A stretch of DNA of 64,000 nt from a virus. The translations under genes were made by a program, and so were the position numbers. Below the pieces are notes generated by a model, which saw only the letters and a list, made by a program, of their open reading frames with translations, had not been told where the DNA came from and searched no databases. The stretch covers positions 7,367-71,366 of the IMG/VR virus record IMGVR_UViG_3300017978_000154; one strand, 5' to 3'. Numbering within the stretch: the first letter of the stretch is position 1; every line of letters begins with the position of its first letter. This document shows, one piece after another, positions 5,806 to 36,996 of the stretch.

Positions 5806-5855
5806 TTTCTTATCTCCTAAGAATACATACAAGCAGACTACCTGCTCATTTCTAT

Positions 5856-20754: not shown

Positions 20755-21489
20755 TTATCTGTTAGAGTTTGGTAGGTTCAAAGAGTGAGTAGCAATACCA
20801 CCGTAAGACTTACCTTTTGTTACTTTTTGGTTTGCACCAGATTTAGAACCTGCTGGGCGACCACGACCACGCTTTGGAGCGTCAGCTGCTGGCTTTGCTG
20901 GCTTATCGTCTTCATCTTCACCTGCATCATAAGATGCGCCATATGAACGACCCTTAACAACAGTTCTGCCGCCAGGACCAGGTGTATACTCTAGAAGTTG
21001 CTCAACGAACTGAGCGTAAGTTAGTTTTTCAGACATGTTAGTCTCCTCTTTTTTAACAGTTTTTTTCTTAACATCTTTAGAAGCATCTGAGCACTTCTCT
21101 GCCATAATTTTACTGATCAATGCTTCTGCAATTTTTCTACCAGTAGCTTGTGCGCTACCAATAGCTGTACTGGCAGAACCAACAGGTTGATCGTTACCAG
21201 TAACAAATTCGATTTGTGCATTATTTGACTTCTTAACCTTTTTGGTATCAGAGATAGTATCAGACTGAGTTGGACCAGCTGAGTCTACTTTAGAATCACC
21301 ACTAGGTTGAATAGTACCTTCGTCGACCTTGTCTTTTGCATTACGAGTAAACTTCTCGTTATCGAAGTTCTGGCGCGAAGTAATAGCTGAAGTCTTTCTA
21401 CCAGACTTATCAGACTTTCTCCAAGCCTCTGGATCGAAAATAATACGTTCTTTACGATCGGCAGATACTGTATCTTCTTTTAATGACAT
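20755..21489 (-). CDS. Low-complexity charged protein with a C-terminal AT-hook (KRGRGRPAGSK)
   Basis: GRP core flanked by basic residues. Confidence 0.4.
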   Translation of the reverse strand: MSLKEDTVSADRKERIIFDPEAWRKSDKSGRKTSAITSRQNFDNEKFTRNAKDKVDEGTIQPSGDSKVDSAGPTQSDTISDTKKVKKSNNAQIEFVTGNDQPVGSASTAIGSAQATGRKIAEALISKIMAEKCSDASKDVKKKTVKKEETNMSEKLTYAQFVEQLLEYTPGPGGRTVVKGRSYGASYDAGEDEDDKPAKPAADAPKRGRGRPAGSKSGANQKVTKGKSYGGIATHSLNLPNSNR

Positions 21490-21490: not shown

Positions 21491-21931
21491 TTAACCCTTT
21501 AAGATTGATTTTAAGAACCAACCATGTTTATCGTGAGTATCTAAGCGAGAAGCTGCAAAATCGGCAATACCTTGCTTATTAGCTGCTGTTGCTAACTCGA
21601 ATACTTTATTTAGGCTATCGATCACTTTAGAGTTTGCATCTAAAAGGTTTTGGAACATCTCATCGGCAGAAGAAGGTACGTCTGCGTCTTCCTCAATAGT
21701 TGAAGACTCTAGAAGGTCTTTAAGGCTATGCGGAGCATATTGACTGATAACACGGATACGTTCAGCTGATGGGTCAACTGCATCGTGTAGTTCTGTGTAC
21801 AGATCGTTTAGGAAATCGTGGTGTTGAATGAAGTCTCTACCTTCAACGTTCCAGTGATAAGAGTGCGCCTTGAAATACATAACGAACGTATTAGCAAGAG
21901 CGATGTGTAGAGATGCGGTTAGTTCTTCCAT
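21491..21931 (-). CDS. Hypothetical protein
   Basis: ORF track only. Confidence 0.35.
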   Translation of the reverse strand: MEELTASLHIALANTFVMYFKAHSYHWNVEGRDFIQHHDFLNDLYTELHDAVDPSAERIRVISQYAPHSLKDLLESSTIEEDADVPSSADEMFQNLLDANSKVIDSLNKVFELATAANKQGIADFAASRLDTHDKHGWFLKSILKG

Positions 21932-22420: not shown

Positions 22421-24523
22421 TTAGATACCTGCTGGTTTAGTATATTTCTTGTGAGACATACGAGCTTTTTCTACTTGCTTAACGCGAGAAACCATACGTG
22501 CAGCTAGACGGTCTACAACTTTACGACGTTGTTGGATGAAACGCTCAACACGTTCTTTCTCACCAACGGAGATCTTAGAAGCATTTTGTCCTCTTAGAAG
22601 ACGCTTCTTAAGAGCAGAAACAGCCATACGACGAGCACGCTTGTTTGCCACTTGAGGTGTTGATAGCTGACGTAGAGCAACCTTCTCTCTACGCTCACGC
22701 TTAGTTTGACTGCGACGCATGCGGGCTTTAGCACGGATACGTTCAACTCTAGATAGAACTTCCATCAGAGCTTCTTCAGTAACTGAATCAAAGGCTTCTA
22801 TTTCTTCGCCAGTCTCATCGTCGATGATTGCTAGTTCTTCATCATCATATGCTTCAAAGAACTCATCAGATTCGTCAGACAAGCTCATTAGTTCGTTTTC
22901 GATTTCAACAATAGAAGCCTCGTTGACTAGAGCGTCTAGGTCATCGAATTGTTCTTTGACTGTCTCAAACTTTTCTTCATGCGGTTCTTGACCAGCTGTG
23001 TGAACCTTATCAACGTTTACAGTTTTAGTTTTTGGTTTAGCAGCTTGGGCTTCAGTTAATTTTGAATCTTTAGCTTGGTCTTTGAAACGCTTTAGTTGAG
23101 CAGTGCGTGTAGCTTGTTGCTCATCAGTTTCTTCTCTGAAGTGAGCGATAGCATTAGCTTTCTTACCTTTAGCACGTAGTGTCTTAGCGGCAGCTTGGGC
23201 TTGGTGACCGTTGTCGAACTTCTTCCATGGCTTACCGTCAATGTGAACAGTGTGTGGACGATCTAACAGAGACTTAGCTTTGAACTTTGGTTTTGGTTCG
23301 TTGTGGTACTCATCGTCTTCGCGAGGCTTCTTAGCAAATCCAGTACGGTTATCATCGTAGCCGTTACCTTCACCCAAGTGATACTTTACTTTACGGTGAC
23401 GCATACTGTGGTCAGTATGTAAGTGAGAGTTACCAACTAGACCATCTTTTACTTTATCAGCAATCTCAGTCTCATCTTTAGTCATTTGACCAGTAGACTT
23501 ACGGAAGTCACTTAGACTCATGATAGACTTAGCGATGTTATACTTCTTAGACTTATCAACAACTGGAGAATCTTTGCAACCGCATTCTTCTGGGATGTTC
23601 TTAAGATTCTGGCGCTCGCGTTCTTGTTGCTTGGCTAGGTCTTCTTTTTCCTTGGCTTGATCAAGAGCAAGTTTCATCTTCTCTGTATCAGCTTGTGCTT
23701 TCTTAGCTTCTTTGTTACCAGTGGCCAAACCAGTGGCTGCAGCAGCGTCAGCTTCTTGTAATAGTTTTTCGTCTAACATAAATTCTCTTTCGGTTAGTTG
23801 TACGTCTTGAATCCATTTACTCACTTTTAAACCAGCTTCATTCTGTAACAGCAAATGATTAGAGCCACGTTTGATAATTTTATATACTGTATTATCGCTT
23901 TCAACGATATCACCTTCGTTAAAAATCTCACCACGGAAATACTGTTCACGCAGGTCGTCCTTAACCAAGTTAATTTGTTCTCTGATTGGCTCAAGGTTCA
24001 AGCCAATACGAATATCATTCATTAGACGCTTACCGTCTAATTCTCTGACTGTTGTTGGTAGACTGTTTTTAAACGATACAAATTCACCCTTTGATGCCAA
24101 CTTCAATAGCTTGTCGTCTTCATCAGGGCAAGTATCGCCAGCCTTAACAATCTCAACATCAGTGATACCAACTTTCTTCAACGCTTTCTTATAGTATTCA
24201 ACGTTATCAGTTGGGGTCACTAAAGTAACACTCTTGTACTTTTTAAGGACAGAGCCGATAGCATCTATCTCTTTATGTACGAATTTTGTATTTGGGAATA
24301 GACTTCCCAAATACTGCATCTTTTTACTAATTTCTAATGGATTCTTTTTAGCGTCTTGTACCGAAGATACAAAAATGAAGTGATCAGCTTTGCGCTGACT
24401 CGCTAATTTACGGACTACCTTGATCTCAAGCTCATGACCCACGTTAGGGGGATTGAATCTTCCGCAGGTGAAAACCACGGACTTGGATGGTAGCTCGCTT
24501 AGGAGTTCTTTATAGTTCTTCAT
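22421..24523 (-). CDS. Large (700 aa) protein with an N-terminal HIGH-motif nucleotidyltransferase domain, a CTS-like N-terminus, a charged coiled-coil middle and an Arg-rich C-terminus. Candidate packaged internal protein
   Basis: MKNYKELLSE resembles T4 IP capsid-targeting sequences (MKTYQEFIAE). CGRFNPPNVGHE is a HxGH nucleotidyltransferase motif, paralogous to the C-terminal domain of the 592-aa protein. Confidence 0.5.
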   Translation of the reverse strand: MKNYKELLSELPSKSVVFTCGRFNPPNVGHELEIKVVRKLASQRKADHFIFVSSVQDAKKNPLEISKKMQYLGSLFPNTKFVHKEIDAIGSVLKKYKSVTLVTPTDNVEYYKKALKKVGITDVEIVKAGDTCPDEDDKLLKLASKGEFVSFKNSLPTTVRELDGKRLMNDIRIGLNLEPIREQINLVKDDLREQYFRGEIFNEGDIVESDNTVYKIIKRGSNHLLLQNEAGLKVSKWIQDVQLTEREFMLDEKLLQEADAAAATGLATGNKEAKKAQADTEKMKLALDQAKEKEDLAKQQERERQNLKNIPEECGCKDSPVVDKSKKYNIAKSIMSLSDFRKSTGQMTKDETEIADKVKDGLVGNSHLHTDHSMRHRKVKYHLGEGNGYDDNRTGFAKKPREDDEYHNEPKPKFKAKSLLDRPHTVHIDGKPWKKFDNGHQAQAAAKTLRAKGKKANAIAHFREETDEQQATRTAQLKRFKDQAKDSKLTEAQAAKPKTKTVNVDKVHTAGQEPHEEKFETVKEQFDDLDALVNEASIVEIENELMSLSDESDEFFEAYDDEELAIIDDETGEEIEAFDSVTEEALMEVLSRVERIRAKARMRRSQTKRERREKVALRQLSTPQVANKRARRMAVSALKKRLLRGQNASKISVGEKERVERFIQQRRKVVDRLAARMVSRVKQVEKARMSHKKYTKPAGI

Positions 24524-24562
24524 TTAATCCATCAATAATTAGTAACAGTATTATTTAGCGTA

Positions 24563-24964
24563 TTAGCAGTTCCACTTTCTTAAGGCAAGAGCCTTACGAG
24601 TAGGTTCGCCATTTGGTTTCTTCATTGGACCATCTACACCAGACATACGTGCACAGAAAGACTTGCGACGGTTAGCAGCTTTGCTGCCTTTCTTTAGTTT
24701 AGAAGGTGGAGTAGTTACAGGTGCCTTTAGGTTGCTACCGTGTTCGCGATTATAGGCATCGCGACCCTTTTGTGTAAGACCACCAGTTGCAGACTTATGT
24801 CCTTTAGCATCAGCAGTTGCTGCTTCATCCAGTTCGTTTTCTTCTTTAACTGGAACGCAGTTTGGAACTTTCTTACCGTTCTTTTCTTTCATACCGATGG
24901 CTTCATAACCAGTCCAGCATGGATCTTTTTTCTTTTCTTCTAGGTAGTCTTTAAACGAAATCAT
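24563..24964 (-). CDS. Small basic protein with a CTS-like N-terminus (MISFKDYLEE). Candidate internal protein
   Basis: N-terminal similarity to T4 IP capsid-targeting sequences with an L-x-E prohead-protease-type site. Lys/Arg-rich. Confidence 0.4.
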   Translation of the reverse strand: MISFKDYLEEKKKDPCWTGYEAIGMKEKNGKKVPNCVPVKEENELDEAATADAKGHKSATGGLTQKGRDAYNREHGSNLKAPVTTPPSKLKKGSKAANRRKSFCARMSGVDGPMKKPNGEPTRKALALRKWNC

Positions 24965-26739
24965 TTTGCCCCCATATGTTTTCTTAAATCATTATAAAGA
25001 GCAGACTTGTGTAAGTCTTTCATGTGTGTTGGTAAACCAGCGTGGAACTCTTTTTGTTTTCCAGCAGCTGCTAATTCGCGCATCTTAGTACCTGATACTC
25101 CAGCAGTACCCTCAGCGTCTGGGTCACGTTCACCAGATGAGTGAACTGTGATTGACTTGAACTTGTATGCGCCGTGTTTGTGTTCAGAACCGTCGTTATA
25201 CTTATTCAGTAACTTTTCGTATTCTTCTGTACGATCAGAACCAGCCACAACGTGTAAGTGACGAGTACCTTTAGCGTACATGTCAGCAGCATGGTGAAGA
25301 ATAGTTGGCTTCTCTTTAGAAGCAGCTTCAATGTTTGTTCCTGGGAAAGCGTTACGAGCGTGTGTTACTTTAACATCAGCAGGTAAAGGGTTTTTCTTTT
25401 CATCATGACTATGTGATAGCACAACCTTATGGTCACCGTTGTGAGTTTTGGCTACTTCTTTGACTTTGTTGATAACTTGTTCATGACCAACAGTTGGCGG
25501 GTTCATACGACCAAAGGCTAGAACGCCATGCTTCTCATCAGGTTCTTTTGAAGGAGTACGAGCCTTCAATAAGTTTTGACGGGCAAACTCTGCACGGTTG
25601 ACCAACTTAGTAGGTTCTGTAACACCATTATGTGTATGGTTATAAACGAAGCCTTCAGGTTTAGAAGCCTCGCCATTGATAGCGTGTTCGTAAGAACCTT
25701 CGTTAGATTCTAGAGACTTAACAAGTTCGTTCTTGGCAGACTGAAGGTGACCGTGCATCTTCAATAGGTTATCGTAGTGACCTTGGTTCTTCTTGATATG
25801 ATCCAAGTGACCTTTTAGTTCATCCAGTTTAGCGTTCTGAGCTTTTTCAGTCTTTAGCTTAGAAACCATCTTCTCATACTTACCAGCGATGTGAGTCTTC
25901 AAACCTTCAGCGTCTGGCGTAGTACCTTCGCGCACAGTTTGGTTGATGTATGTGGCTAGATGTCCACCGTCACCGTGGTGCATAGATGTAGCTTTGTACA
26001 TCTTTCCCTTATGCTCAGCGTGGATAGCACGAGCAGCGGACATATGTTTGTTGAATGAATCTTGAGACTGCTTAGAGTAGTGAGCACCAGAAGCATCATA
26101 ATCAGCAGTGTGATGGAATACGTCTGGGTGTTGTCCGAAATCACTTCCGGAAACATTATGGTGAGCAGACATGCTGCTTAGTTTATCACCTTCGTATTTG
26201 GTATGAACAACTACACCAATCTTAGACTTCTTAATAGCTTCAGCCTTTTCACCCTTGGCTGTATATGTGATAGTGTTAGGTGTAAACGAAACCTTATCAC
26301 CTTTCTTCTTTAAGTCATCGTGAGTAAACATCAAGTCGCCTTGATATACACCAGACTTTGGAGAAACTTTAGGGAAGTGCTTAAGAGCAGACTTTAGCTT
26401 ATCGGCTAGACCAGGAGCATGTCCGTGGTTAGCATCTACATCTTCTGGAGTGTAGTTAATCTTTGGGTTCTTATTGAACGCTGACTTAGATGCCACAAAG
26501 AACTTACCGTTCTCAGGGTGGTGACCAAACACAACTGATGGAGAACCATCATACTTCATTGTCATCTTATGAGACTGAAGCCCTTGTACAGTGTGATGGT
26601 GCGCAGCTTGAAGAGCACCATAAGCGTGTTCAAAGCCATCTTCTCCGTGTAGAAGTGGACGGTCTTCAGCGTGGTGAATGTGCTTTAGTTTAGCACCTTC
26701 CTCTTCAGCTTCTAATAAGAAATTTAGAAAATTGATCAT
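24961..26739 (-). CDS. His/Lys-rich 592-aa protein with a CTS-like N-terminus and a C-terminal HIGH-motif nucleotidyltransferase domain. Candidate packaged internal protein
   Basis: MINFLNFLLEA N-terminus. FGRMNPPTVGHEQ (HxGH) and VSGTKMRE (ISxTxxR-like) match the cytidylyltransferase/NMNAT-type fold motifs. Confidence 0.5.
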   Translation of the reverse strand: MINFLNFLLEAEEEGAKLKHIHHAEDRPLLHGEDGFEHAYGALQAAHHHTVQGLQSHKMTMKYDGSPSVVFGHHPENGKFFVASKSAFNKNPKINYTPEDVDANHGHAPGLADKLKSALKHFPKVSPKSGVYQGDLMFTHDDLKKKGDKVSFTPNTITYTAKGEKAEAIKKSKIGVVVHTKYEGDKLSSMSAHHNVSGSDFGQHPDVFHHTADYDASGAHYSKQSQDSFNKHMSAARAIHAEHKGKMYKATSMHHGDGGHLATYINQTVREGTTPDAEGLKTHIAGKYEKMVSKLKTEKAQNAKLDELKGHLDHIKKNQGHYDNLLKMHGHLQSAKNELVKSLESNEGSYEHAINGEASKPEGFVYNHTHNGVTEPTKLVNRAEFARQNLLKARTPSKEPDEKHGVLAFGRMNPPTVGHEQVINKVKEVAKTHNGDHKVVLSHSHDEKKNPLPADVKVTHARNAFPGTNIEAASKEKPTILHHAADMYAKGTRHLHVVAGSDRTEEYEKLLNKYNDGSEHKHGAYKFKSITVHSSGERDPDAEGTAGVSGTKMRELAAAGKQKEFHAGLPTHMKDLHKSALYNDLRKHMGAK

Positions 26740-26740
26740 A

Positions 26741-27976
26741 TTAGCTCAATGAGAATGTGCCAGCGACACCTTTGTGTGGACCAGAAGAACCCTTCATGGT
26801 GAAAGAACCAACGTTTGTTACTTTACCAGTCTTCTTATGGACACCTTTGATCACAGTAGAGATACCGCCATTGTGTACAACGTGTAGCTTATCAAAGTTG
26901 GCTAAGTGATCATCCGCAATACTGTGTGATGGAACAACGTGCGATTCAGCATCACCACTATCTTTTACTTTGGAGTGAGCAACGATATGCGGGATATGAG
27001 TTGGTGCGGATACGTGTTGACGAACAATATCACGTAACTCATCATCAGACTTCTTAGCCATACTTTCAGAGAAGTGTTTAGCCATGGCACGTTTAGCGTG
27101 CAGCGCTGATACCTCGGCAGTCGCTGCTCTTGTCTGAGCTTTCTGTTCAAACGCTGCTTGTTCAGTAGGCTTTAATGCGTCATGCGCAGAAATGTATTTT
27201 GCAAGATGTTCGTGTGTGACTTTATTCTTTGAACTTAGGGTCTTACCCTTTGCCAACAAACCTTCAAACTTAGAGTGTTCAGCACGAGCCTTATCAATAC
27301 CCATCTTATCAATTTTGTATTGAATGTGACGTTGAGTCGCTGGACCATTGTAACCAAGTTCTTCCATATGCGCATGGTGGTTGTCGGATAGCTTCTTTAA
27401 AGAACCCTTTTGAAGACCAGCAGTCTTCTCCATAGAATCTAGACCAGGATTGCGATAGTTTGGTTTATGTGAACCATACTTGGCAGATACACCAACGTGA
27501 CCAACAGTCTTACCGTCTTTATCGTGGACACGAACAATAACGTCAGCGTTGGAGTTTACGTCTTTAACACCAGTAGTCTTTTCGTGGTCTCCTGGCTTTC
27601 CTGGCTTATCAGCGTTTGATGTCCAGAATACTCGCCCGATGTGTTGACCTTCACCAACGTGTCCAGCTGACTTCAGGTGAGCGTGAATAGATTTAGCAGT
27701 TTGTTTTGCGTGTTCGTCGATCTGAGAGTATGCAGCGTCACCCATCTTTTTCTTAAGACGATCGTGAACTTGAGTTGGAGTACCAGCGTGGTCTTCGTTT
27801 TCAGACTCTGAGCGGTGATGTTCTGGAAGAGTTGAATCAGGGTGAAGATACTTCGCTAGAAGTAGTTCGTGCATTTTACCCTTGTCGTCGTTTTCAACAT
27901 CTTTAGTATGATTAGCTTCTAGGAGCAACTCTTCTTGAAGAAGCGATTCCTTTAAGAAACTTTTAAAATTTAACAT
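26741..27976 (-). CDS. His/Lys-rich 411-aa protein with a CTS-like N-terminus (MLNFKSFLKESLLQEELLLEA), paralogous in its N-terminus to the 592-aa protein
   Basis: Shared M-[LI]-N-F-x-x-F-L N-termini. Numerous His residues. Confidence 0.45.
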   Translation of the reverse strand: MLNFKSFLKESLLQEELLLEANHTKDVENDDKGKMHELLLAKYLHPDSTLPEHHRSESENEDHAGTPTQVHDRLKKKMGDAAYSQIDEHAKQTAKSIHAHLKSAGHVGEGQHIGRVFWTSNADKPGKPGDHEKTTGVKDVNSNADVIVRVHDKDGKTVGHVGVSAKYGSHKPNYRNPGLDSMEKTAGLQKGSLKKLSDNHHAHMEELGYNGPATQRHIQYKIDKMGIDKARAEHSKFEGLLAKGKTLSSKNKVTHEHLAKYISAHDALKPTEQAAFEQKAQTRAATAEVSALHAKRAMAKHFSESMAKKSDDELRDIVRQHVSAPTHIPHIVAHSKVKDSGDAESHVVPSHSIADDHLANFDKLHVVHNGGISTVIKGVHKKTGKVTNVGSFTMKGSSGPHKGVAGTFSLS

Positions 27977-28012: not shown

Positions 28013-29338
28013 TTAGGCTGCGACCAAACCAACTAGTTCGGTCATCATCTTACCCTTTTCAATATAGTGGCGAACATAGTTGTTCTTTGTTTCACCCTTT
28101 AGTCTAACGGTGAATAAGATAGAACCTGTTTTCACGTCTTGAAATCTCACTTCTGGTTTACTTTTATTAGAAACAAAAACTGCTTTTAGTTCTCGGTTCT
28201 TTAGCCTTAGAGCTTGAGCTAAGTTACCAAACTTATAAATCATAGCCTCTTTGTTGCTTAATGATACCATATCCACTGTTGGATCATTTCTGGTTCCAAA
28301 ATACATCAGACCATCAGCAAGGCTCTTGTAAACTGCCTCTTGGTTAGAAGTCATCTTGCGGTTGAACTCAGCAACCATACCTTTGTACACCTCAGTATTT
28401 GCTGCAATTAATCCGTCTGATTTCAGAACCGTGTAATATTTCTTTTCTAGAGCTGGCGAGACTTTTAAATCTAAGAGAGTTTCCCAAAGGTCTTTTTGTT
28501 TATCTAAACCACCACCACCAACTTGGCCAAATTGTTTTGCGCCAGCTGCTTTTAGCGAAACGTTGATATTAACTTTCTTATTATCAATTTCAACGTAAAC
28601 GTCAACCTTGGTGTCATTCTGTGCAACTACACCAATTGCTTTTACTTCTATCCTGTTATATAAGCTGTTTTCATAAACAACTTTTGCGTTTGCAGCAACA
28701 GTAGTTGAGTTGGCGTACTTAACGCTGGAGTTAATAATACTTTTCAAGTTCTTAATATGACGAGGGTTCTTCAACGCTTTAATGTTAATAAGCGCAGAGT
28801 TTACTTCCCAGTACAAATCATCAACAACCTTTGGTTCTTTGTTTGGCGATTTTAATGGACCAATAACCTGTCTTGTGTCAGTATCGTTAAGACGTTTGAT
28901 CATATCCAATACGTCACTATCAATAACAGCTTGGTTCTTATTTAAGAATCGGCAAGCAATAGCTGCGCTAAAGATAATCTCAGCCATATCACCACGGTTG
29001 CTCTTACCACCGAAGTCTTCTGTCTTCATGATATCACTCAGAGGTACTAGAGCAGAAACTTGCCCGTTTCGTTCATACGTTAAGTTGATTTGCTTAAATG
29101 AAACTGAACCTGCTCGAATAACGTTGGCGATGTCAGCAGAGTCTGCCAAGTCAAGTGCGTTCTTAGAAACCAGTTTACCAGTACGTGGGTCTGGATAAGA
29201 GATTCGATTGAATGGTTGTTGTTTACCGTCCGCAGTGGTAAACGGAGATTTTACACCTTCAATCAGTTTTTCAAGCAGGGCAATGATACGTGTTTCGCCG
29301 TGCTTACCTTTAAAATCTTTTACAGCCAGTTTAGCCAT
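28013..29338 (-). CDS. Hypothetical 441-aa protein
   Basis: ORF track. No recognisable motif except a Gly-rich GQVGGGG segment. Confidence 0.4.
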   Translation of the reverse strand: MAKLAVKDFKGKHGETRIIALLEKLIEGVKSPFTTADGKQQPFNRISYPDPRTGKLVSKNALDLADSADIANVIRAGSVSFKQINLTYERNGQVSALVPLSDIMKTEDFGGKSNRGDMAEIIFSAAIACRFLNKNQAVIDSDVLDMIKRLNDTDTRQVIGPLKSPNKEPKVVDDLYWEVNSALINIKALKNPRHIKNLKSIINSSVKYANSTTVAANAKVVYENSLYNRIEVKAIGVVAQNDTKVDVYVEIDNKKVNINVSLKAAGAKQFGQVGGGGLDKQKDLWETLLDLKVSPALEKKYYTVLKSDGLIAANTEVYKGMVAEFNRKMTSNQEAVYKSLADGLMYFGTRNDPTVDMVSLSNKEAMIYKFGNLAQALRLKNRELKAVFVSNKSKPEVRFQDVKTGSILFTVRLKGETKNNYVRHYIEKGKMMTELVGLVAA

Positions 29339-29340: not shown

Positions 29341-30048
29341 CTATCCCTTATTGACATACTGACTATTTAGTTTATATTTCCTATCCCACTTAACAATATG
29401 CTGCATTAGTTTTGGTATGGCATAATTGTTTTTAAAATCGTAATCAAAGGTCTTAAGGATATAATGTAGCGTTGAAGAGTCTCGTTTGTTATTGACTCTG
29501 GCCAATAAAGTTTCTAATGAAACGTTTGGTCTGTTCATTTTAAAGTCTAGATAGACACAATGAGCGTATGCTTGTATCTCATCAAACTCAGATAGGTATG
29601 AACGTTCAGCGTCTTTTAGAGAGTGTCCAACCTTCTTGTGCGGTAGGACATAATTACTGTACTCGTCATTGCGACGATCGTACTGCATGAAGTGGATCAT
29701 CTCATGCATTAAGGTTTGTATGACACGGTACTTGAATTTGTTCCAAGTCTTGACTTCAAATTTATGTTTATCGAAGTCAAAAGAATATATCTGGATACAA
29801 CATTGACGGTCATCTGGAGAATACTCGCCACCGACAGCAACGTATTTTGACCACGATTTCTTCAGAGGTTGTCTGAACTCTACTTTAGTTCTCCACTTCT
29901 TAAAGTAGTTGGAGAGACCGACGGAGTTATTTTCATACTCGTCTAGGTCTCTCCATATTTTTGATGGGTTGAGTTTAGCTCGGAATGGACGCTCAGTGAA
30001 GTTGAGCATTTCCATCCAGTCAAAGTTAGATTGTTCTAGGAAATTCAT
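29341..30048 (-). CDS. Putative zinc metallopeptidase-like protein (HExxH)
   Basis: TLMHEMIHFMQY contains HEMIH. N-terminus MNFLEQ resembles the neighbouring CTS-like N-termini. Confidence 0.35.
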   Translation of the reverse strand: MNFLEQSNFDWMEMLNFTERPFRAKLNPSKIWRDLDEYENNSVGLSNYFKKWRTKVEFRQPLKKSWSKYVAVGGEYSPDDRQCCIQIYSFDFDKHKFEVKTWNKFKYRVIQTLMHEMIHFMQYDRRNDEYSNYVLPHKKVGHSLKDAERSYLSEFDEIQAYAHCVYLDFKMNRPNVSLETLLARVNNKRDSSTLHYILKTFDYDFKNNYAIPKLMQHIVKWDRKYKLNSQYVNKG

Positions 30049-30072: not shown

Positions 30073-30678
30073 TTACCCTAATTGTCCTTCTAGGAAGGCT
30101 AAGACTTTCGCTTGTTCCTCTAAGTTAGTATTTGCAAACTCAGTAATATAAGGCATCAAGTCAAAATTTGATAACAGGTTACTATATTTAGTTTCGCGAC
30201 CTCTTAGGAATTGCTCGGACTGATCAGAACCACGATCTTTATATCGCTGTTCGAGAACTGTCTTAGGTGCGTTCAGGAATACGATATGAAGCTCGGTATC
30301 TGGGAGACCCATGGCGAACTCTAGGAAAGACTGATTGAAGATACGGTCACCTTCAAATAGAACGTTACAGTTATGGGAAGCGATCCACTCCTGCATGGCT
30401 GGCTGAACTGCCATAGAAAGACGGTCGGTTCCAGCGAACACTTCGCCTTCTTCATACTTACCAAGGATGTATAGATCACGCTCAGTATTATACATGGCTG
30501 AAACTAGCTTGGCTGGTTCAACTGGTTGGAATACTTTACTTTCCATATACTTACGGAACAACGTGGTCTTGCCAGTTCCTGGGCTACCACCAACAGCAAT
30601 AAGTTTTCTCACTTTTTTCTCCGCTCTAATAAGTTGAATGGTGACTTCATCATTCGCTTTAATTTTATCAATGAACAT
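30073..30678 (-). CDS. P-loop kinase (candidate nucleic-acid/nucleotide kinase; candidate 5-hydroxymethylpyrimidine DNA kinase by context)
   Basis: Walker A AVGGSPGTGKTT. About 200 aa. Sits in an operon with the modification-type genes. Confidence 0.55.
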   Translation of the reverse strand: MFIDKIKANDEVTIQLIRAEKKVRKLIAVGGSPGTGKTTLFRKYMESKVFQPVEPAKLVSAMYNTERDLYILGKYEEGEVFAGTDRLSMAVQPAMQEWIASHNCNVLFEGDRIFNQSFLEFAMGLPDTELHIVFLNAPKTVLEQRYKDRGSDQSEQFLRGRETKYSNLLSNFDLMPYITEFANTNLEEQAKVLAFLEGQLG

Positions 30679-31105
30679 TATTCAGTAACTCTTTCAATTC
30701 TTCATCAGTGAATACCCAAACACGACCGATGAAGTGATGAACGTCAGCATCCTTATCGTGTTTCTTTTTGAACATAACCTTCTTGGCAATATCACGTGCT
30801 AAGTTCTTGGCGATGTTCTCTTTAATCTCAGAGGCATAATCAGGGGCAACCTCTTGTAGCTTCAATAGCTCTTGAGCAGTTACTTTATGATCAACAGCGA
30901 TACGGTTGAGGCTATGCTCATCCATAATCTCATCCACTGTGCGTGTAATCTTTGGGAGAGGTGTAGCAGCAGTCATAGCATTATGAGCCGACCAACTACT
31001 AATACCAATTGGTGCAAGACCGCTATTTGTTACAACAGAATAATTGCCGTCGCTTAATGTAAGACTTCCTTGCATCACATCATTTAATACGTCATCTGGG
31101 TTCAT
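30668..31105 (-). CDS. Hypothetical protein
   Basis: ORF track. Overlap-coupled to both neighbours. Confidence 0.35.
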   Translation of the reverse strand: MNPDDVLNDVMQGSLTLSDGNYSVVTNSGLAPIGISSWSAHNAMTAATPLPKITRTVDEIMDEHSLNRIAVDHKVTAQELLKLQEVAPDYASEIKENIAKNLARDIAKKVMFKKKHDKDADVHHFIGRVWVFTDEELKELLNNVH

Positions 31106-32121
31106 GTAAACATCTCCAATCCCATTAAGGGTTTTTCTTCATCTTCAAACATCCATTCTAAGTTATCTATTTTACCTGAGTTCAGGAAGAAAGTAAACTT
31201 TTCTTTATTGATGCCATTCTTGTGGTCTAGTCGCAAGTCGATTGTTTCATTTCGAGATTGCCACATAACATTCCAATCAATACCATACCATCCATCACCT
31301 TCAGCTTTGATAATCTCTTCAGCTTGACGGTCAAGGTAATATCCAAGATAGCGACCGTGCTTTGCTCTAAAGATTTTCTTGAAAGAACACAGACAGGTTT
31401 CCATAGTAAAGAAGTCAATTTGATTTGCTAGTTCAGGAAACCTGTCTAGCATTTCAACCCTGATTCCCTCGCCAAATGCTTCAAGGTCTCCATACTCGCT
31501 TCCAGTGAGTTTTCGATCAACATCGTTATCACGCCCAGCGGCAAAAAGTAATCCATTACGATGAGAACGGGAACCATCATAATCATCCAACATAAGAGAA
31601 CTAGGCTCAATGTTAATACCAGCAGTGTGCTTAAGATGCTGCATATAGAACCAAGTAGAATAACGACCAAACTTATGAAGCCTTGACTTAAGAACGCTCC
31701 ACAGAGCATCAAAGTTTTCTTTAGCATCACCGACGTAGTACGATTCGAGTGTTTCACGTTGAGTCTTCTTTCCAATAAAATTTTGATACGATTCAAACAT
31801 TGCTGGAAGATGACCCTTGTTCCATTTCGTATCAGTCTGGTAACGGAGTCGTTTGTAGTTGGTTGTATTCCATTGAGTGATACGATCTACCGTGGCAAGT
31901 TCGTAGTCAGGGAATTCGTTCTTAAGAACCCAAGCAGTTGGCAGTTGATATGTGTTACCATACAACCAAGCGAACCAAATACGTTCTTCGTCATTATGTT
32001 CATAACGTTTATGAAGATAGTTTGTAGCCCAAACCGCTGGGTCACAGTCATCATATTTCATTGACCATGCGTACCAGCGGATGAAGGCTTCTCTTCTGTT
32101 TTCTTTATTTCGATAATCCAT
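31102..32121 (-). CDS. Uncharacterised W/Y-rich 339-aa protein; candidate base-modifying transferase (aGPT-Pplase-like) by context only
   Basis: No catalytic motif recognised by eye. Placed between the P-loop kinase and the ParB-like gene in the same operon. Confidence 0.3.
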   Translation of the reverse strand: MDYRNKENRREAFIRWYAWSMKYDDCDPAVWATNYLHKRYEHNDEERIWFAWLYGNTYQLPTAWVLKNEFPDYELATVDRITQWNTTNYKRLRYQTDTKWNKGHLPAMFESYQNFIGKKTQRETLESYYVGDAKENFDALWSVLKSRLHKFGRYSTWFYMQHLKHTAGINIEPSSLMLDDYDGSRSHRNGLLFAAGRDNDVDRKLTGSEYGDLEAFGEGIRVEMLDRFPELANQIDFFTMETCLCSFKKIFRAKHGRYLGYYLDRQAEEIIKAEGDGWYGIDWNVMWQSRNETIDLRLDHKNGINKEKFTFFLNSGKIDNLEWMFEDEEKPLMGLEMFT

Positions 32122-33460
32122 CTCGTGTCACAATGTTGTGATTAAATGGGTGCGCAAAGAAGATGTTAATCTTACTTTTAACACCGTGTGTTAAAATATT
32201 ATCCAGCTTTTTAAGGACACTGTCAGCTTCTGTCAAATAACCAACGATACTCTTAAAGTGAATAATTATATTCGCTTCGTTCTTACCACCTTTAACGAAG
32301 TTCTCAACCGCATAAGCAATAGCACCACCAATACCACCGTTATTCACCCCATCAAGAGATTGGTAAATAACAGGCAGACCATTATTATGTGTAGATTGTT
32401 GCCAGTAACGAGCAAGAGTAGCAGTGCTGTAATCAATGAAGTTTTGTTCATTCTTTGAACGAGCAAGGGCTTCAGCGGTTGCTTCAGCTAACTGGTCGCA
32501 TTTACGAATGACGTCAGAGTTAAGCCACATACCACCCTTCTTAGTACCTTTACCACCAAGATCTTCTTTGGCGATTGCTTTGAAACCAACGCTGTCGAAA
32601 CTGTGTGATGGGTAACGTGCTTGAAGTTCGCGAAGACGCATCACCAAGTCATCAAGTGTATTACCAGTGCGTTCAGCTTCGACATGGTTCATCAAGTTGC
32701 CAAAGATATTGAAGTTATACGCATCATTATCAAAGTGAGAGTAATCAACTTTGATAACAGGGAATGTATCCCAACCAGCAACAGAAGCAGCATTGACACG
32801 ATGGTTACCATCAAGCAACATAATGATACGACCGTTGGCGTCAACTAAAACAATAACTGGGGTGATATGCTTTCTAGCAAATCCTGGCGTTTTAAACGCA
32901 GTAATCAGAGAAGAAAGTTTGTCTTGTTTTAACTTGAATGCACGTGCTTGGTTGTGGTTGGTTATGTATAGCGTATGTACAGATTCTTCTGTTACAGGGA
33001 ATTCTTCAGTACCACCTTCTTTCCATTTTTCAATGGCTTCAGTAACCTTTCCCCACAGTTCAATCAGTTCAGGTGTTTTGGTTTTCTTCTCGAGGATAAG
33101 GTCGCTTGGGTCAAACCACTCACCAGTTTCAACCCACTTTGTAACATTGTCAACATGTTCTTTTACTGGACGGAATGATCGAACGACGCCTGGTCCGCCA
33201 CCATTAGTTTTATTATAGAACTGTTTAGAATTCTTTGCGTCAAACAAACTCAAAAAGAAATACTCTTGGTTGTACATTTCTTCTTTTGTGCCGTGCGCAA
33301 GAATAACACGCTCAATTAGGTCTTGGTGGATGGCTTCTTTGAGGAACCGATTAGTCGAGGATGTAATGTAGTTATCAACGGTCACATCTCCGTTGTGCAC
33401 ACCAATATACTTTTCTTTGGTGTTTACATTAGTCAAGCCGTACAAAATCCAAGTAGACAT
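32105..33460 (-). CDS. ParB/Srx-like domain protein with a GIY-YIG-like N-terminal motif
   Basis: VLVDANGRIIMLLDGNHRVNAA is the ParB N-terminal-domain DGxHR signature. ILYGLTNVNTKEKYIG is a GIY-(n)-YIG-like N-terminus. Confidence 0.45.
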   Translation of the reverse strand: MSTWILYGLTNVNTKEKYIGVHNGDVTVDNYITSSTNRFLKEAIHQDLIERVILAHGTKEEMYNQEYFFLSLFDAKNSKQFYNKTNGGGPGVVRSFRPVKEHVDNVTKWVETGEWFDPSDLILEKKTKTPELIELWGKVTEAIEKWKEGGTEEFPVTEESVHTLYITNHNQARAFKLKQDKLSSLITAFKTPGFARKHITPVIVLVDANGRIIMLLDGNHRVNAASVAGWDTFPVIKVDYSHFDNDAYNFNIFGNLMNHVEAERTGNTLDDLVMRLRELQARYPSHSFDSVGFKAIAKEDLGGKGTKKGGMWLNSDVIRKCDQLAEATAEALARSKNEQNFIDYSTATLARYWQQSTHNNGLPVIYQSLDGVNNGGIGGAIAYAVENFVKGGKNEANIIIHFKSIVGYLTEADSVLKKLDNILTHGVKSKINIFFAHPFNHNIVTRDGLSK

Positions 33461-33487
33461 AATAAATCCTTTTCAAGTTATAGATAT

Positions 33488-33516
33488 ATTATACTATATT
33501 CTTGAATAAAAGTAAA
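33488..33516 (-). promoter_or_regulatory. Sigma70-type promoter TTTACT-N17-TATAAT (minus strand)
   Basis: Reverse complement of attata at 33488-33493 and of agtaaa at 33511-33516. Confidence 0.5.
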
Positions 33517-33521
33517 TACCC

Positions 33522-34073
33522 TCAAAACCCTTCTAGAGTCAGGGGTTTCTGGGCTTCAGCGAGGTCAAACACCTCTACGCAGCCACCTTTACCCTTTTTA
33601 TGGATGGCTCCGTTGATCATCTGGTCTGTATAGTCGTAGTCTCCCTCAAAGAAGGTATCACCATCAATTCTAAAAATACTCAGCTGACAACCAGACTTTT
33701 GTTTACCCCAGAACTTGAAACCAATCTTCTCATAGAAGCCAACTGATTCTGGTTCTGACGATACACGGAAGTACAACGCTTGTTTACTTTTAACATGACG
33801 AAGTGATGCTTCACATAATGCTTTGGCTGCTCCCTGACCCCTGTGTTTAGCAAAGGTATGAAGCAGTTGTAGATTAGCAACGAAAGGTTTACGCTTAGAG
33901 ATAGTGGTAATGATAGCAGCCATCAGTTCACCTTCTTCGTTGAAGGCACCGATACAATCATCCCACTGTTCCTGCATGTCTGCTTTGGCCACGAAAGTCT
34001 TAGCAAACTTGTCAGCCTTATCATCAGAGATAGCTTTTATGAATTGGTCACGAGTACACTTATTCAACTTCAA
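33522..34073 (-). CDS. GNAT family N-acetyltransferase
   Basis: HRGQGAAKAL matches the (R/Q)xxGxG/A acetyl-CoA binding motif in a typical about 180-aa fold. Confidence 0.65.
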   Translation of the reverse strand: MKLNKCTRDQFIKAISDDKADKFAKTFVAKADMQEQWDDCIGAFNEEGELMAAIITTISKRKPFVANLQLLHTFAKHRGQGAAKALCEASLRHVKSKQALYFRVSSEPESVGFYEKIGFKFWGKQKSGCQLSIFRIDGDTFFEGDYDYTDQMINGAIHKKGKGGCVEVFDLAEAQKPLTLEGF

Positions 34074-34932
34074 CGTATGTTCTCACTTTCTTACCACGTT
34101 CTTCTGGGTGTTTAGTCTTTTCCCAACCGATGAACTGAGCCAAGTCCCATTGCATTGGTGGGAACTTATAACCACGTTCAGAGATAAGCTCATTGACACT
34201 TGGACCATCATTCAATGCAGCATCAAGGAAGTCTTCAACAAAACGGAAGCATGATTCTAGTTCAGTACGATCTAACGTGCCACGGAACAATCGAAACTCT
34301 ACCGTGTCAATATGCTTCAACGCATACATGTTAATAGCGAAACGGAATGGACGACCCATTGATACACCATCTTTACCTGCGGCGTGCATCTTGATAAAAG
34401 AATCAAAGTCAGTTGCTAGGTTGATAATGTTATCGCTCATGTAGTCAGGCATTGGGCGACCACCATCAAACTTCAGATACATCTTAGAACCTTTGGCACC
34501 CTTCATCTGGTTGTGCTCAAAGAAGCCATATACATGTTCAATGGCTGCAGCTTGGTTCTCTTTGATGTATTTTGTTAGACGCTTCAGTGCATCAATATCA
34601 TCACGAAGACCTGGGACACGGCAATGAATATGGGTATGAGCAGTAACACCAACAGTTGGGTCGTGACCTTGTTCATTGAATAAATCTTTCAGTTCAAAAT
34701 AACGATCAACTTGGTCTTGCCAAGTTCTAGTTGGCTTGGTGTTAATCTCACCACCCATCGGCGGTTCAACACCCAACGGATCGGCGCACACGTTTGCGTA
34801 TGGTGCACGAAGGTTGATAATGTCACGCTCAGAGTATTCCCAAGAACCTAGTTGTTCCGGAATTGAAAAAGAGCGGGGAACATCTCCCCACTCTATCTCC
34901 ATGCCATATGTAAAATCACTTTTGTTGTACAT
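34060..34932 (-). CDS. Glutamine-synthetase-like amidoligase (putative amidoligase family)
   Basis: EIEWGD, HTHIH and FRLFRGTLD conserved-residue pattern of GS/GCS2-type amidoligases. Start placed at MYNKSDF (AAGGA RBS); track start at 34962. Confidence 0.45.
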   Translation of the reverse strand: MYNKSDFTYGMEIEWGDVPRSFSIPEQLGSWEYSERDIINLRAPYANVCADPLGVEPPMGGEINTKPTRTWQDQVDRYFELKDLFNEQGHDPTVGVTAHTHIHCRVPGLRDDIDALKRLTKYIKENQAAAIEHVYGFFEHNQMKGAKGSKMYLKFDGGRPMPDYMSDNIINLATDFDSFIKMHAAGKDGVSMGRPFRFAINMYALKHIDTVEFRLFRGTLDRTELESCFRFVEDFLDAALNDGPSVNELISERGYKFPPMQWDLAQFIGWEKTKHPEERGKKVRTYVEVE

Positions 34933-35623
34933 TCTGTAAATCCTTGTTTCCTGTTTTAACAAGTTGCATTCTCATAGTTAGACCAGAGTCAAACGTAATA
35001 TATGTGTCCATTGGAATTTCCATGTTTGGAAAATACAAATTAGCACGTTTGGCAATATCTGCTGTAGAGGTAATTATACTACCATTCGATAGAGTAGTCA
35101 AATATAATGGACGCTTACCATTGCGATAAACAGTCAACTCTTTAGGAGAAGCCGTGAGAGTACAAACTGCCATGGACATATTGTTGAACTCATCAAGAGG
35201 ATCGTTTGAATGCAGGACTAACTCAGAATCATTCTTTGTTGCGCAGTCATAACCATACAACTCTTTCCAGTGTTCTGGAAGCTCTTGAGTGATAACACCA
35301 TTGTGGACAATTGATTTGTCTGCATTGGCCATAGGTTGGTTATATTCCAAATCAGATGTCGAGTAACGACAGTGACCGATCAGATATAAGTTACCATCCT
35401 TGTTAATGAACTCTTTGAAGTTGTCGTTATGCATATGCTTCTCAACGAACTGATCCGCTGGGATAGCTTCCTTAATTGTAACAATATCATCAGTCCACTT
35501 TGGTAAGAATGACATACCTGTTGCGTGCATACCACGAATCTTAGACTCGACGAACACACGCTTCAGGGCTTCAAAATCCTTCAGAGAAGGATTCTTAATA
35601 ACTGCTCCAATTACGGCACACAT
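34916..35623 (-). CDS. Class-II (Ntn) glutamine amidotransferase domain protein
   Basis: MCAVIG: Cys directly after the initiator Met is the hallmark of GATase type 2 N-terminal nucleophile enzymes (PurF/GlmS/AsnB type). Confidence 0.6.
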   Translation of the reverse strand: MCAVIGAVIKNPSLKDFEALKRVFVESKIRGMHATGMSFLPKWTDDIVTIKEAIPADQFVEKHMHNDNFKEFINKDGNLYLIGHCRYSTSDLEYNQPMANADKSIVHNGVITQELPEHWKELYGYDCATKNDSELVLHSNDPLDEFNNMSMAVCTLTASPKELTVYRNGKRPLYLTTLSNGSIITSTADIAKRANLYFPNMEIPMDTYITFDSGLTMRMQLVKTGNKDLQNVQQK

Positions 35624-36996
35624 TAGGAAAAGAACTCATCTAGTGAAGAAGCATTAGATTCTGGATGCATCTTCAAGGTTTCTGCTTCGCCAACTTCTTT
35701 CTTACAGAAGTCATACCACTCTTGGCTTTCCCACATTCCAGCGTACACACCGTTAAAGCGTGGGCGATAATGAGGGTTGTTAACATCGTTCTTGCAGTGA
35801 TCAACGAACTTACGACGAGCATTTTCATACTCCATAGAACCAAGAGTCAACATACCTTCGTGGAAGAATGCAATGATAGAGATACGTTCAGCATTAGGGT
35901 CATCCAGAATCAATTCAGTATTACCATGCAGACCAGCCATGTTATTAACGAACAGTAAATCACCTGGACGAATGTTAACAGCATAACCAATCTCGGGGAA
36001 TACCAAGTAAGCACCTCTATAATTATCAGAGTTACTAAACACGCAGATATTAGCGAAACCATCATCCATATTTGCGGGGTCATAGTGGGCTGCAGTTCTG
36101 AAGTTACGGTTTACAGTAATTGTACTGAATGGAGTATTTGGGACCAAGAAGCGTGGATCAATCTTATCCGCAGCAGCTTTCTGGTTACCATAACGCCATG
36201 GCAACAATTCCTCAAACGCTTTAGACAAGTGTTGGAGATATGGATAAGACTTCTTGAACTTATCGAATTGCTTCTCAGTGTAAGAAGTTGCACGACCATA
36301 AGGGATACGTGGATAACGATCGTACCAACCAGCAATACCAGAGTTCACTGGGTTTGCATATGTAGTCTTGGAGATTAGGTTATCTTCAACCCAAGCTGCA
36401 TCGGCTGAAGCGTCAGCTGCAGGTTTACGGCGAGTTGTTTCAACCCAGTCATCAAATTGGAACCCAGCATCTGCAACCGAATCGCGAAGCCATACTTGAG
36501 CACGGTTAGACGCTTGGTCACGACCTTCGGCATATTTAGTTTGGATAGCTTCAATCGGGTCTTCACCCAACAAGTTACCAGCACCCTTCTTAAAGGCTTC
36601 AATGATATCCCATTGATACGCTGTAACCCAGTCGCGACCTTGTAGCTTCTCACCACGTGGACCAGCAGCAGTACCACGGTTCTGAGTTTCAGTAGCTGCG
36701 TCACGAAGACCTTCGTAAGCAGACTTTGTCATTTCATCACTGAAGTAGTTCTTACGGAACTTGAAAACAATCTTACGTTCATCAAGTGCCTTGGAGCAAC
36801 CACTACACGCCTTTTCACAATTTGGGTCAGACAGGTCAGTTGCACAAGAAGCAGGAAGGTACAAGTCCATGTCAGACTCAACCAATGTATGGTAATGGCG
36901 TTCATCAAGCCAAGTACCAACTAGGTCTGGACGAGGAACAACCTCAGGGGCTTCCAATACAACAACTTTCACATTTCTACCAGCATCAACACTCAT
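35623..36996 (-). CDS. 2-oxoglutarate/Fe(II)-dependent dioxygenase-like protein with an N-terminal Cys-cluster domain. Candidate nucleic-acid base hydroxylase
   Basis: AAHYDPANMDDG ... GLHGNTEL ... RISIIAFF gives an HxD...H...RxS double-stranded beta-helix pattern. N-terminal CATDLSDPNCEKACSGCSK. Confidence 0.5.
   Translation of the reverse strand: MSVDAGRNVKVVVLEAPEVVPRPDLVGTWLDERHYHTLVESDMDLYLPASCATDLSDPNCEKACSGCSKALDERKIVFKFRKNYFSDEMTKSAYEGLRDAATETQNRGTAAGPRGEKLQGRDWVTAYQWDIIEAFKKGAGNLLGEDPIEAIQTKYAEGRDQASNRAQVWLRDSVADAGFQFDDWVETTRRKPAADASADAAWVEDNLISKTTYANPVNSGIAGWYDRYPRIPYGRATSYTEKQFDKFKKSYPYLQHLSKAFEELLPWRYGNQKAAADKIDPRFLVPNTPFSTITVNRNFRTAAHYDPANMDDGFANICVFSNSDNYRGAYLVFPEIGYAVNIRPGDLLFVNNMAGLHGNTELILDDPNAERISIIAFFHEGMLTLGSMEYENARRKFVDHCKNDVNNPHYRPRFNGVYAGMWESQEWYDFCKKEVGEAETLKMHPESNASSLDEFFS

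Follow-up and report, generated by a model that had tools for sequence, protein, structure and literature searches.

We analysed a 64,000-nucleotide (nt) stretch of viral DNA (positions 7,367 to 71,366 of IMG/VR record IMGVR_UViG_3300017978_000154; this whole stretch is hereafter denoted the window), which carries four consecutive genes whose products, of 700, 133, 592 and 411 amino acids (aa), each begin with a ~10-residue sequence (the tag) resembling the capsid-targeting sequence that bacteriophage T4 internal proteins (IPs) carry. A first-pass annotation, made from the letters of the DNA, had reported these four genes and quoted their N-termini; all are found on the minus strand at the coordinates it gave, with the N-termini as quoted. 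The features of the block, together with the gene directly upstream, are as follows.

28013-29338, minus strand: 441-aa gene, directly upstream of the 411-aa gene; phrog_3560, of unknown function
26741-27976, minus strand: 411-aa gene, N-terminus MLNFKSFLKESLLQEELLLEA; tag, then a body with a PD-(D/E)XK nuclease fold
27947-27976, minus strand: tag of the 411-aa protein, MLNFKSFLKE (codons 1-10), recognised by pattern match and family conservation
24961-26739, minus strand: 592-aa gene; tag MINFLNFLLE, acidic linker, DUF6267 domain (aa 17-395) and HIGH-type nucleotidyltransferase domain (aa ~400-592)
25555-26691, minus strand: DUF6267 domain of the 592-aa protein (Pfam DUF6267, 321 bits; phrog_455, 379 bits)
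24964-25542, minus strand: HIGH-superfamily nucleotidyltransferase domain of the 592-aa protein, with GRMNPPTVGHE and GVSGTKMR invariant in the family
24563-24964, minus strand: 133-aa gene; tag MISFKDYLEE, Cys mini-domain (aa 13-47) and DUF6321 (aa 56-131)
22421-24523, minus strand: 700-aa gene; tag MKNYKELLSE, HIGH nucleotidyltransferase and small beta-domain (aa 1-250), charged low-complexity middle and Arg-rich tail (aa ~585-700)
22424-22771, minus strand: Arg-rich tail of the 700-aa protein, recognised from its sequence (phrog_23027, E 2.6e-5)

The 441-aa protein is untagged and its slot varies among relatives, so its place in the cassette is uncertain.

The window also encodes gp43 polymerase, UvsX, gp41, gp61, ribonucleotide reductase, the sliding clamp and its loader, gp46/47, gp55 and a tail-tube protein; the source phage is an uncultured T4-like myovirus. 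By protein comparison its closest isolates are Kyanoviridae, namely cyanomyoviruses, Pelagibacter phage HTVC008M, Methylophilales phage Melnitz and Phage C48C1, to which the 592-aa protein is 32-36% and gp41 60-64% identical. No near-identical DNA was found among isolated phages and no database record was found for the exact 592-aa protein; a member of its cluster, on a metagenomic contig of 167-174 kb, shows the same locus. The window and the Kyanoviridae isolates share the gene order gp43, uvsX, gp41, tagged locus, 'head protein' (T4-GC537), gp61 and nrd, and the same locus is present on metagenomic contigs of 98-174 kb at 61-100% identity.

The N-terminal tag

The T4 ipII and ipIII products begin with MKTYQEFIAE, and that of ipI with MKTFKEF. 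The main determinants of targeting in MKTYQEFIAE are residues 4 and 7, and processing is governed by residues 8 and 10, with the gp21 protease cleaving after L/I-x-E (PMC9026906). All four window tags have F or Y at position 4, F, Y or L at position 7, L at position 8 and E at position 10, and end in the L-x-E sites LSE (700-aa protein), LEE (133-aa), LLE (592-aa) and LKE (411-aa); a second such site, L-L-E, lies at aa 18-20 of the 411-aa protein. The search pattern used for the tag, ^M.{1,4}[FY]..[FYLMW][LIV].E, was devised after inspecting the window sequences and was therefore tried on the genomes of T4 and Melnitz. It matches 4 of the 87 open reading frames (ORFs) in the window, which are exactly the four adjacent genes. 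The core motif occurs 10 times in 19,966 window positions, and 0.17 N-terminal matches are expected where four are observed (Poisson P ~3e-5 for at least four, the adjacency of the genes not being counted in P). Across 70 kb of T4 (132 ORFs) the pattern picks out ipII and ipIII only, the two for which the targeting sequence has been established by experiment. Of the 215 ORFs of Melnitz, whose genome was scanned in full, it matches one, the first gene of the syntenic cassette, and a looser pattern brings in just one more, the transferase gene.

Hundreds of orthologues retain the tag, in register down to ~30% identity. The core motif is present in 118 of 120 homologues of the 411-aa protein, mostly with a second LL(L/V)E site ahead of the conserved body. 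The 592-aa family (120 homologues, 59-99% identity) has F-x-x-[FY]-L-x-E in nearly all full-length members, followed by a variable acidic linker and then by the invariant KLKHIxHAEDRP. In a diverse set of 149 DUF6267 proteins, each representing one 50%-identity cluster, 68 have the tag, whilst the rest start straight at KLKHLEHxED, so that the tag is either there in full or missing altogether. Some versions of it, such as MKTFVEFITE and MKSYTEFVAE, are almost identical to those of T4. In both AlphaFold2 (AF2) models, those of the 592- and 411-aa proteins, the tag is disordered (pLDDT <50).

The proteins behind the tag are not conserved in the same way. Tagged, unrelated proteins occur within the same locus of HTVC008M, Melnitz and C48C1 (MLDFKNFITE, MLSFKQFVSE, MITFKKYLEE, MQGFKTFLSE, MKKFSEIIEA), and the tag is likewise found on proteins of S-SM1 and Syn9. 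An hhalign comparison of the 411-aa family with Melnitz_15, which occupies the same slot, gave an alignment confined to the tag; no homology was detected between the 411-aa family and the same-slot tagged proteins of Melnitz or HTVC008M, or the 441-aa neighbour. The view that cyanophage orthologues lack the tag was withdrawn, as S-SM1 GC190 and Syn9 gp184 are tagged; its absence does hold for the cyanophage DUF6267 proteins and for the short S-MbCM7 form of the transferase. The similarity among these N-termini is real and far beyond chance, and their resemblance to the T4 capsid-targeting sequence, which the first-pass annotation had pointed out, is strongly supported by the conservation, by the unrelated tagged bodies, and by the promoter context and published virion proteomics of a tagged orthologue described below.

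Tag-like N-termini were also seen beyond the block. A 244-aa protein encoded at 20755-21489 (minus strand) has a C-terminal AT-hook-like RGRGRPAG, and its longer homologues in three relatives (L011:15497-16723, L012:14657-16354 and L013:15537-17282) start with MKFKSFMESL, MDYKSFMEAL or MQFKSFMEML and contain an EF-hand-like loop, DKNKNGKIDAHDF. These proteins may likewise be internal proteins.

Tagged orthologues in virions, and the prohead protease

The product of T4-GC190, a cyanophage core gene annotated as a 'citidylyltransferase', was detected in purified virions of S-SM1 (Sullivan 2010, PMC3037559). The available entries of Table S8 of that study give virion peptide counts for GC190 and four further proteins of the same locus (the four below and GC425, 17 counts) alongside those for gp21 (8), gp20 (18) and gp22 (22). 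The genes concerned are neighbours, SSM1_188 to SSM1_195, and are syntenic with the window block; the N-termini of four of their products are as follows.

S-SM1 GC190: MKKFSAFLNE-A, full tag; in virions, 25 counts
S-SM1 GC1455: MLSFKELQE; in virions, 7 counts
S-SM1 GC1454: MNLNELPD, with L-N-E at positions 3-5; in virions, 10 counts
S-SM1 GC1453: no tag; in virions, 12 counts

The S-SM1 DUF6267 protein GC71, which is untagged, does not appear among the virion proteins in the available entries of Table S8 (PMC3037559). Virions of S-CREM2 also contain a cytidylyltransferase, and such proteins were described in 2023 as frequently detected in cyanophage virion proteomes (PMC10665884). Our literature search found no paper that ties the cyanophage cytidylyltransferase to a capsid-targeting sequence, or that mentions DUF6267.

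Of the machinery on which T4-type targeting depends, Melnitz encodes both gp22 and gp21, the latter 38% identical to T4 gp21. The gp23 maturation sites of the two phages align (FLTE-A in T4, FLSE-A in Melnitz), suggesting that protease specificity is conserved in this lineage.

Late-promoter-like motifs

Three copies of CTAAATA, which is the late-promoter consensus of the T4-like phage Aeh1 (PMC1524935), lie at short distances ahead of genes in or next to the block.

29364-29370, minus strand: CTAAATA, 26 nt upstream of the 441-aa start codon
28010-28016, minus strand: CTAAATA, 34 nt upstream of the 411-aa start codon
24552-24558, minus strand: CTAAATA, 29 nt upstream of the 700-aa start codon

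Three relatives, 61-71% identical, have [C/T]TAAATA 25-42 nt ahead of both the block start and the long-transferase gene. The block-start motif was found in contigs L008 and L011-L013, and a CTAAATA-type motif precedes the long-transferase orthologue at -37 (L011), -26 (L012) and -30 (L013). In Melnitz, the first cassette gene (Melnitz_15) has a perfect TATAAATA at -46, and motifs of the [CTA]TAAATA type also lie ahead of the gp22, gp23, portal and sheath genes.

We considered TATAAATA as the local late promoter and rejected it, as its two matches in the window are no more than chance would give and CTAAATA fits better. The tail-tube gene of the window (63178-63727, minus strand; phrog_45, E 3.9e-35) does have a perfect TATAAATA, ~5 nt upstream of the called start; translation probably begins further downstream.

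A restriction-endonuclease-like fold in the 411-aa protein

The AF2 model of the 411-aa body contains the alpha-beta-beta-beta-alpha-beta core fold of PD-(D/E)XK enzymes. Residues E37, D145 and S164-x-K166 are invariant in 50 sequences of the family; in the model, E37 is located in helix 1, D145 at the start of strand 146-151, and S164-A-K166 inside strand 157-167, a spacing of catalytic residues which we take to match that of HinP1I, one of the two best structural matches. Judged from this model, the 411-aa protein is a restriction-endonuclease-like nuclease of MspI/HinP1I-like fold. It differs from MspI and HinP1I, to which it is only 10-13% identical, in having extra helical and C-terminal beta domains, in being encoded by a phage, and in carrying a capsid-targeting tag. 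The first-pass annotation had noted the tag of this protein but had missed the nuclease fold of its body.

No partner methyltransferase for the nuclease was seen among the window genes scanned. In Melnitz (MZ577097.1), the gene for an M.HhaI-like C5 methyltransferase (L014:4010-5227) lies ~7 kb upstream of the tagged cassette and a short way downstream of the one for DNA polymerase; M.HhaI is specific for GCGC, and HinP1I recognises GCGC.

Transferase and DUF6267 domains of the 592- and 700-aa proteins

Two HIGH-type nucleotidyltransferase domains had been proposed from the motifs CGRFNPPNVGHE, FGRMNPPTVGHE and VSGTKMRE, all of which are present, and profile and fold comparisons confirm both. 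The domain of the 592-aa protein matches phrog_3041 ('cytidyltransferase') with 206 bits, and that of the 700-aa protein, which has the motifs GRFNPPNVGHE and LPTTVRE, matches phrog_3041 with 104 bits and phrog_395 with 99 bits. Scores against Pfam PF01467 (CTP_transf_like) are 18.8 and 18.4 bits (the latter for the 700-aa protein), below the gathering cut-off of 21. A Rossmann-like HUP fold is present in both domains, in which the first His of the (H/T)xGH motif is replaced by Thr (592-aa protein) or Asn (700-aa protein). They are only 12-18% identical to nicotinamide mononucleotide adenylyltransferase (NMNAT), NadD, phosphopantetheine adenylyltransferase (PPAT) and glycerol-3-phosphate cytidylyltransferase, and 'cytidyltransferase' is an annotation label only.

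An NAD salvage pair is encoded elsewhere in the window (3372-5832, minus strand), comprising a 466-aa NadV-like phosphoribosyltransferase of the PRK09198 family (647 bits) and a bifunctional NMNAT/Nudix protein (239 bits); presumably it resembles the phage NAD+-reconstitution pathway that counters NAD-depleting defences. Because this pair is present, NAD salvage was judged unlikely as the primary role of the two HIGH transferases.

The remainder of the 592-aa protein is dominated by DUF6267, a family of 1,982 representative clusters. The first-pass annotation had described the transferase domain as fused to a His-rich low-complexity region, whereas most of the protein is DUF6267; in its AF2 model (pLDDT 87) residues 1-16 are disordered. 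An alignment of 83 diverse members shows near-invariant K62-x-D64-G65, K85, Q133-G-D135, E362-G-x-V365 and K378...R382, in an order that may correspond to the ligase and capping-enzyme motifs I, Ia, III, IV and V. In hhalign comparisons of DUF6267 with T4 Rnl1, Rnl2 and DNA ligase the matches were not significant (probability <1%), the best local segments falling on motifs III, IV and V, and HMMER searches of the Protein Data Bank (PDB) and Pfam with DUF6267 found no ligase; as no significant similarity was obtained, the likeness to ligases is put forward tentatively. Sequence searches of the PDB with single proteins and with family profiles, DUF6267 included, gave nothing useful, and neither PADLOC defence models nor NCBIfam produced a meaningful match for any of the four tagged proteins.

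Natural fusion proteins join these domains in several ways. In one (P0382), DUF6267 is joined to a nuclease domain of the 411-aa family (hhalign probability 98.7%, E 2.7e-16), two (P0262 and P0377) combine the transferase with DUF6267, in either order, and a fourth (P0287) adds a Pol-beta-type nucleotidyltransferase; the nuclease, DUF6267 and the transferase are therefore likely to be functionally linked. The arrangement in S-PM2 depends on the record consulted: in LN828717.1 (93503-95203) DUF6267 and transferase align to the window protein as one piece, whereas in the reference NC_006820.1 they are split into two oddly starting ORFs, which could reflect a window-like fusion, a frameshift or an annotation problem.

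Basic modules and composition

All four proteins had been called His/Lys-rich. This is true with respect to histidine for the 592- and 411-aa proteins (9.3% and 9.0% His, against 2.5% in the window proteome), but not for the 700- and 133-aa proteins (2.4% and 1.5%), which are instead rich in Lys and Arg (19% and 22% K+R, respectively). Many histidines of the 592- and 411-aa proteins are invariant, as in KLKHIHHAEDRP, NHGHAPG and HHRSESEN..HAGTP; metal binding and pH sensing are possible roles.

The 133-aa protein matches Pfam DUF6321 (94 bits), and its Cys mini-domain recurs within the long transferases of Melnitz, C48C1 and L013. The N- and C-terminal parts of the 700-aa protein are 40-47% identical in clade relatives, around a variable middle region that gives proteins of 799 or 826 aa in near-identical contigs. 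The Arg-rich tail reported earlier for this protein is real, spanning about aa 585-700; it weakly matches a free-standing 123-aa tagged protein of Phage C48C1 (E 0.002) and is a probable nucleic-acid-binding module. Its match to ribosomal protein S7 in a PDB search (E 0.13) was dismissed as compositional.

The upstream DNA hypermodification cassette and other neighbours

A DNA base hypermodification cassette (30073-36996, minus strand), conserved in relatives, is located directly upstream of the tagged genes and includes the following.

35623-36996, minus strand: Tet_JBP dioxygenase
34916-35623, minus strand: GATase_6 glutamine amidotransferase
33522-34073, minus strand: GNAT acetyltransferase
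31102-32121, minus strand: amino-acid:DNA transferase (PF18724)
30073-30678, minus strand: P-loop Nucleotide Kinase3

It also holds genes of unknown function, and some relatives add a radical-SAM gene or a second 2-oxoglutarate (2OG) oxygenase gene. The cassette could protect phage DNA; were that DNA hypermodified, the sharing of a capsid by the nuclease and the phage genome would be explained, and the neighbourhood suggests that the nuclease would target unmodified DNA after injection.

Between the modification cassette and the tagged block, a 235-aa protein (29341-30048, minus strand) with an HExxH motif (LMHEMIHF) and a weak SprT-like match (E 0.022) is kept in relatives, at 233-242 aa. Just downstream of the block, a gene for a Dps/ferritin-like protein (21491-21931, minus strand; PF00210, 82 bits; phrog 'DNA binding protein') is kept in the clade contigs L008 and L010-L013. 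Further away, two adjoining ORFs of 534 and 162 aa (8962-11054, minus strand) have signal-peptide-like starts, MKKLLAILWLTVSFAHA and MYKKLCVMSLFVMTTLNAWA, which suggest exported proteins encoded by the phage.

Proposed function and alternative explanations

We consider it likely that the four genes form an internal-protein cassette, encoding capsid-targeted enzymes of a T4-like phage, and that the phage probably injects ready-made enzymes along with its DNA. This reading draws on the tag and its conservation, the folds of the cargo, the domain fusions, the late-promoter-like motifs and the published detection of a tagged orthologue in virions. By analogy with T4 IPII and IPIII, the ~10-residue tag on each product (aromatic residue at position 4, hydrophobic or aromatic at 7, L-x-E at 8-10) would bind the scaffolding core, so that the protein is built into the prohead; a gp21-type prohead protease would then cleave after L-x-E, and the mature protein would be kept in the head with the DNA and injected with it. 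Scaffold binding, cleavage, injection and enzymatic activity are what we infer for the cargo, which would comprise the PD-(D/E)XK nuclease, DUF6267 (possibly a ligase-like covalent nucleotidyltransferase) joined to a HIGH transferase, the basic DUF6321 protein, and a second HIGH transferase with an Arg-rich, putatively DNA-binding tail. As a working guess, this pre-made set would act on nucleic acid or nucleotide cofactors at the first moments of infection, the nuclease cutting unmodified host or competitor DNA and sparing the hypermodified DNA of the phage. There is a small but appreciable chance that the phages of this clade, and many uncultured T4-like phages with tagged DUF6267, deliver a pre-assembled nuclease, ligase-like and transferase toolkit as an offensive, virion-borne restriction system, in which the DUF6267-transferase pair nucleotidylates, seals or repairs the ends of nucleic acids or cofactors before phage gene expression.

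Several observations weigh against the internal-protein assignment. For this phage and its close clade, packaging and activity are predictions from sequence; the tagged locus sits between the replication genes gp41 and gp61, away from head genes; and the head module (gp21, gp22 and gp23) lies beyond the window, its presence being deduced from T4-like synteny and from relatives. Three of the four tagged proteins are far larger than T4 IPI-III, although the 682 aa of T4 Alt indicate that large size does not limit packaging. Some long-transferase orthologues do not have E at position 10 (MKDYRQFIKQ, and MKTLKELLRK in HTVC008M), and the untagged GC1453 of the same locus is also found in S-SM1 virions, whilst neither the S-PM2 nor the Syn9 virion proteome includes GC190, despite the tag on Syn9 gp184. 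An active nuclease in a DNA-filled head would need a protection mechanism. Finally, CTAAATA is mildly enriched across the window (15 observed, 10.1 +/- 3 expected), and the motifs therefore count as support for late expression, not as proof of it.

It is unlikely, in our estimation, that the four proteins are ordinary cytoplasmic enzymes of NAD or nucleotide metabolism, DNA modification or repair, which are not packaged, with the shared N-terminus serving localisation, partner binding or turnover and the virion detections reflecting carry-over. The locus does lie within a replication and nucleotide-metabolism region, right after the hypermodification cassette, the authors of the S-CREM2 study themselves caution that the cytidylyltransferase may be co-purified (PMC10665884), and GC190 is missing from two of three early cyanophage proteomes. 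Against this, the tag agrees with the T4 targeting sequence at every position of experimental importance and includes a protease site that would be useless to a cytoplasmic enzyme; the linkers behind it are disposable, and the 411-aa family has a second L-x-E. Five S-SM1 proteins of one locus were found in virions, with counts, in the available entries of Table S8, comparable to those of true structural proteins; late-promoter-like motifs precede the cassette, and NAD salvage is already served by the separate NadV and NMNAT/Nudix genes.

Quite unlikely, too, is a role confined to the prohead, into which the proteins would be directed as accessories of the core or scaffold, or as counter-ions that condense DNA in the manner of gp67, gp68 or IPIII; after injection they would be largely degraded or inert, their enzyme folds being vestigial. 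Such a role would fit the strong basicity of the 700- and 133-aa proteins, of which the former also has an Arg-rich tail and 12 internal L/I-x-E sites, and head assembly is defective in T4 IPIII mutants (PMC9026906). Vestigial folds are, however, difficult to reconcile with the catalytic motifs, which do not vary over hundreds of sequences (transferase, GRMNPPTxGHE and GxSGTKxR; nuclease, E37, D145 and S164-x-K166; DUF6267, KxDG). Moreover, internal L/I-x-E sites are few in two of the proteins, with one in the 592-aa protein and, past the leader region, two in the 411-aa protein, which suggests that both survive maturation. That the N-termini are alike by chance, as a by-product of early codons (K, N, F, I, L, Y, E) that are AT-rich and favour translation, or through recent duplication of a 5' gene end, is highly improbable. 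All tag residues do have AT-rich codons, and the pattern was set after the sequences had been seen; yet none of the other 83 window ORFs has the tag, which keeps its register in orthologues to ~30% identity and in T4, and the four bodies are unrelated except for the two transferase domains, the tag coming and going as a unit on DUF6267 proteins. The conservation of these sequences effectively refutes an origin in chance or composition.

Relation to known systems

The window cassette resembles T4 IPI, IPII and IPIII in its ~10-residue tag (aromatic at 4, hydrophobic at 7, L/I-x-E at 8-10), in the hypervariable, unrelated bodies behind a conserved tag, and in the clustering of the genes. It differs in that the T4 proteins are of 95-193 aa, a size which only the 133-aa protein fits, the others being enzymes or fusions of 411-700 aa. 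T4 IPI is an anti-restriction inhibitor, and the roles of IPII and IPIII are unsolved; T4 belongs to the Straboviridae, whereas the nearest isolates of the window phage are Kyanoviridae, a distant lineage, and packaging of its tagged proteins is a prediction. T4 Alt is comparable in that this large enzyme travels in the head, loses a propeptide to gp21 and is injected; the T4 record places this 682-aa ADP-ribosyltransferase in the capsid and has it enter the host together with the DNA. Its leader, MELITELFDE, fails the tag pattern, however, and it catalyses ADP-ribosylation, in contrast to the nucleotidyl transfer and nuclease functions predicted here.

Among cyanophages, T4-GC190 (S-SM1 SSM1_190, Syn9 gp184 and S-CREM2 ORF154) has a transferase domain 29-40% identical to those of the window, lies at the same syntenic locus, and bears the tags MKKFSAFLNE in S-SM1 and MKKFSAFLSE in Syn9. 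Most cyanophages differ from the window in having separate genes for the transferase and for DUF6267 (T4-GC71), the latter untagged, whilst in the window the transferase is duplicated, one copy standing behind a tagged DUF6267 and the other carrying a long charged extension. The ejection proteins of phiKZ, 201phi2-1 and SPN3US are comparable in that many large head proteins, some of them enzymatic (virion RNA polymerase), have propeptides that are removed after Glu by a gp21-related protease at redundant sites (PMC9026906); they differ in using an S/A-x-E motif and in lacking a short, transferable T4-type tag at the N-terminus.

The suggestion of the first-pass annotation that packaged nucleotidyltransferases form a novel class was too strong, given that virion cytidylyltransferases were reported in 2010 (PMC3037559) and 2023 (PMC10665884) and that T4 Alt provides a precedent. 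Within the literature searched, what appears to be new is that a T4-type tag is recognised throughout this phage lineage, that it serves as a module on cargo comprising DUF6267, transferase and restriction-enzyme-like proteins, and that domain fusions give evidence of the cargo enzymes working together.

Implications

Should the tag function as in T4, one could read the injected proteome from sequence for cyanomyoviruses, pelagimyophages and their uncultured relatives, a very large group that is ecologically dominant in oceans and lakes, and the tag could serve to load foreign proteins into the heads of phages other than coliphages. A virion-borne, restriction-like nuclease beside a hypermodification cassette would represent a novel form of phage offence, or a weapon against competitors. 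The cyanophage core 'cytidylyltransferase' and T4-GC71/DUF6267, both long unexplained, would, if the proposal is true, gain a testable role, acting at the instant of infection.

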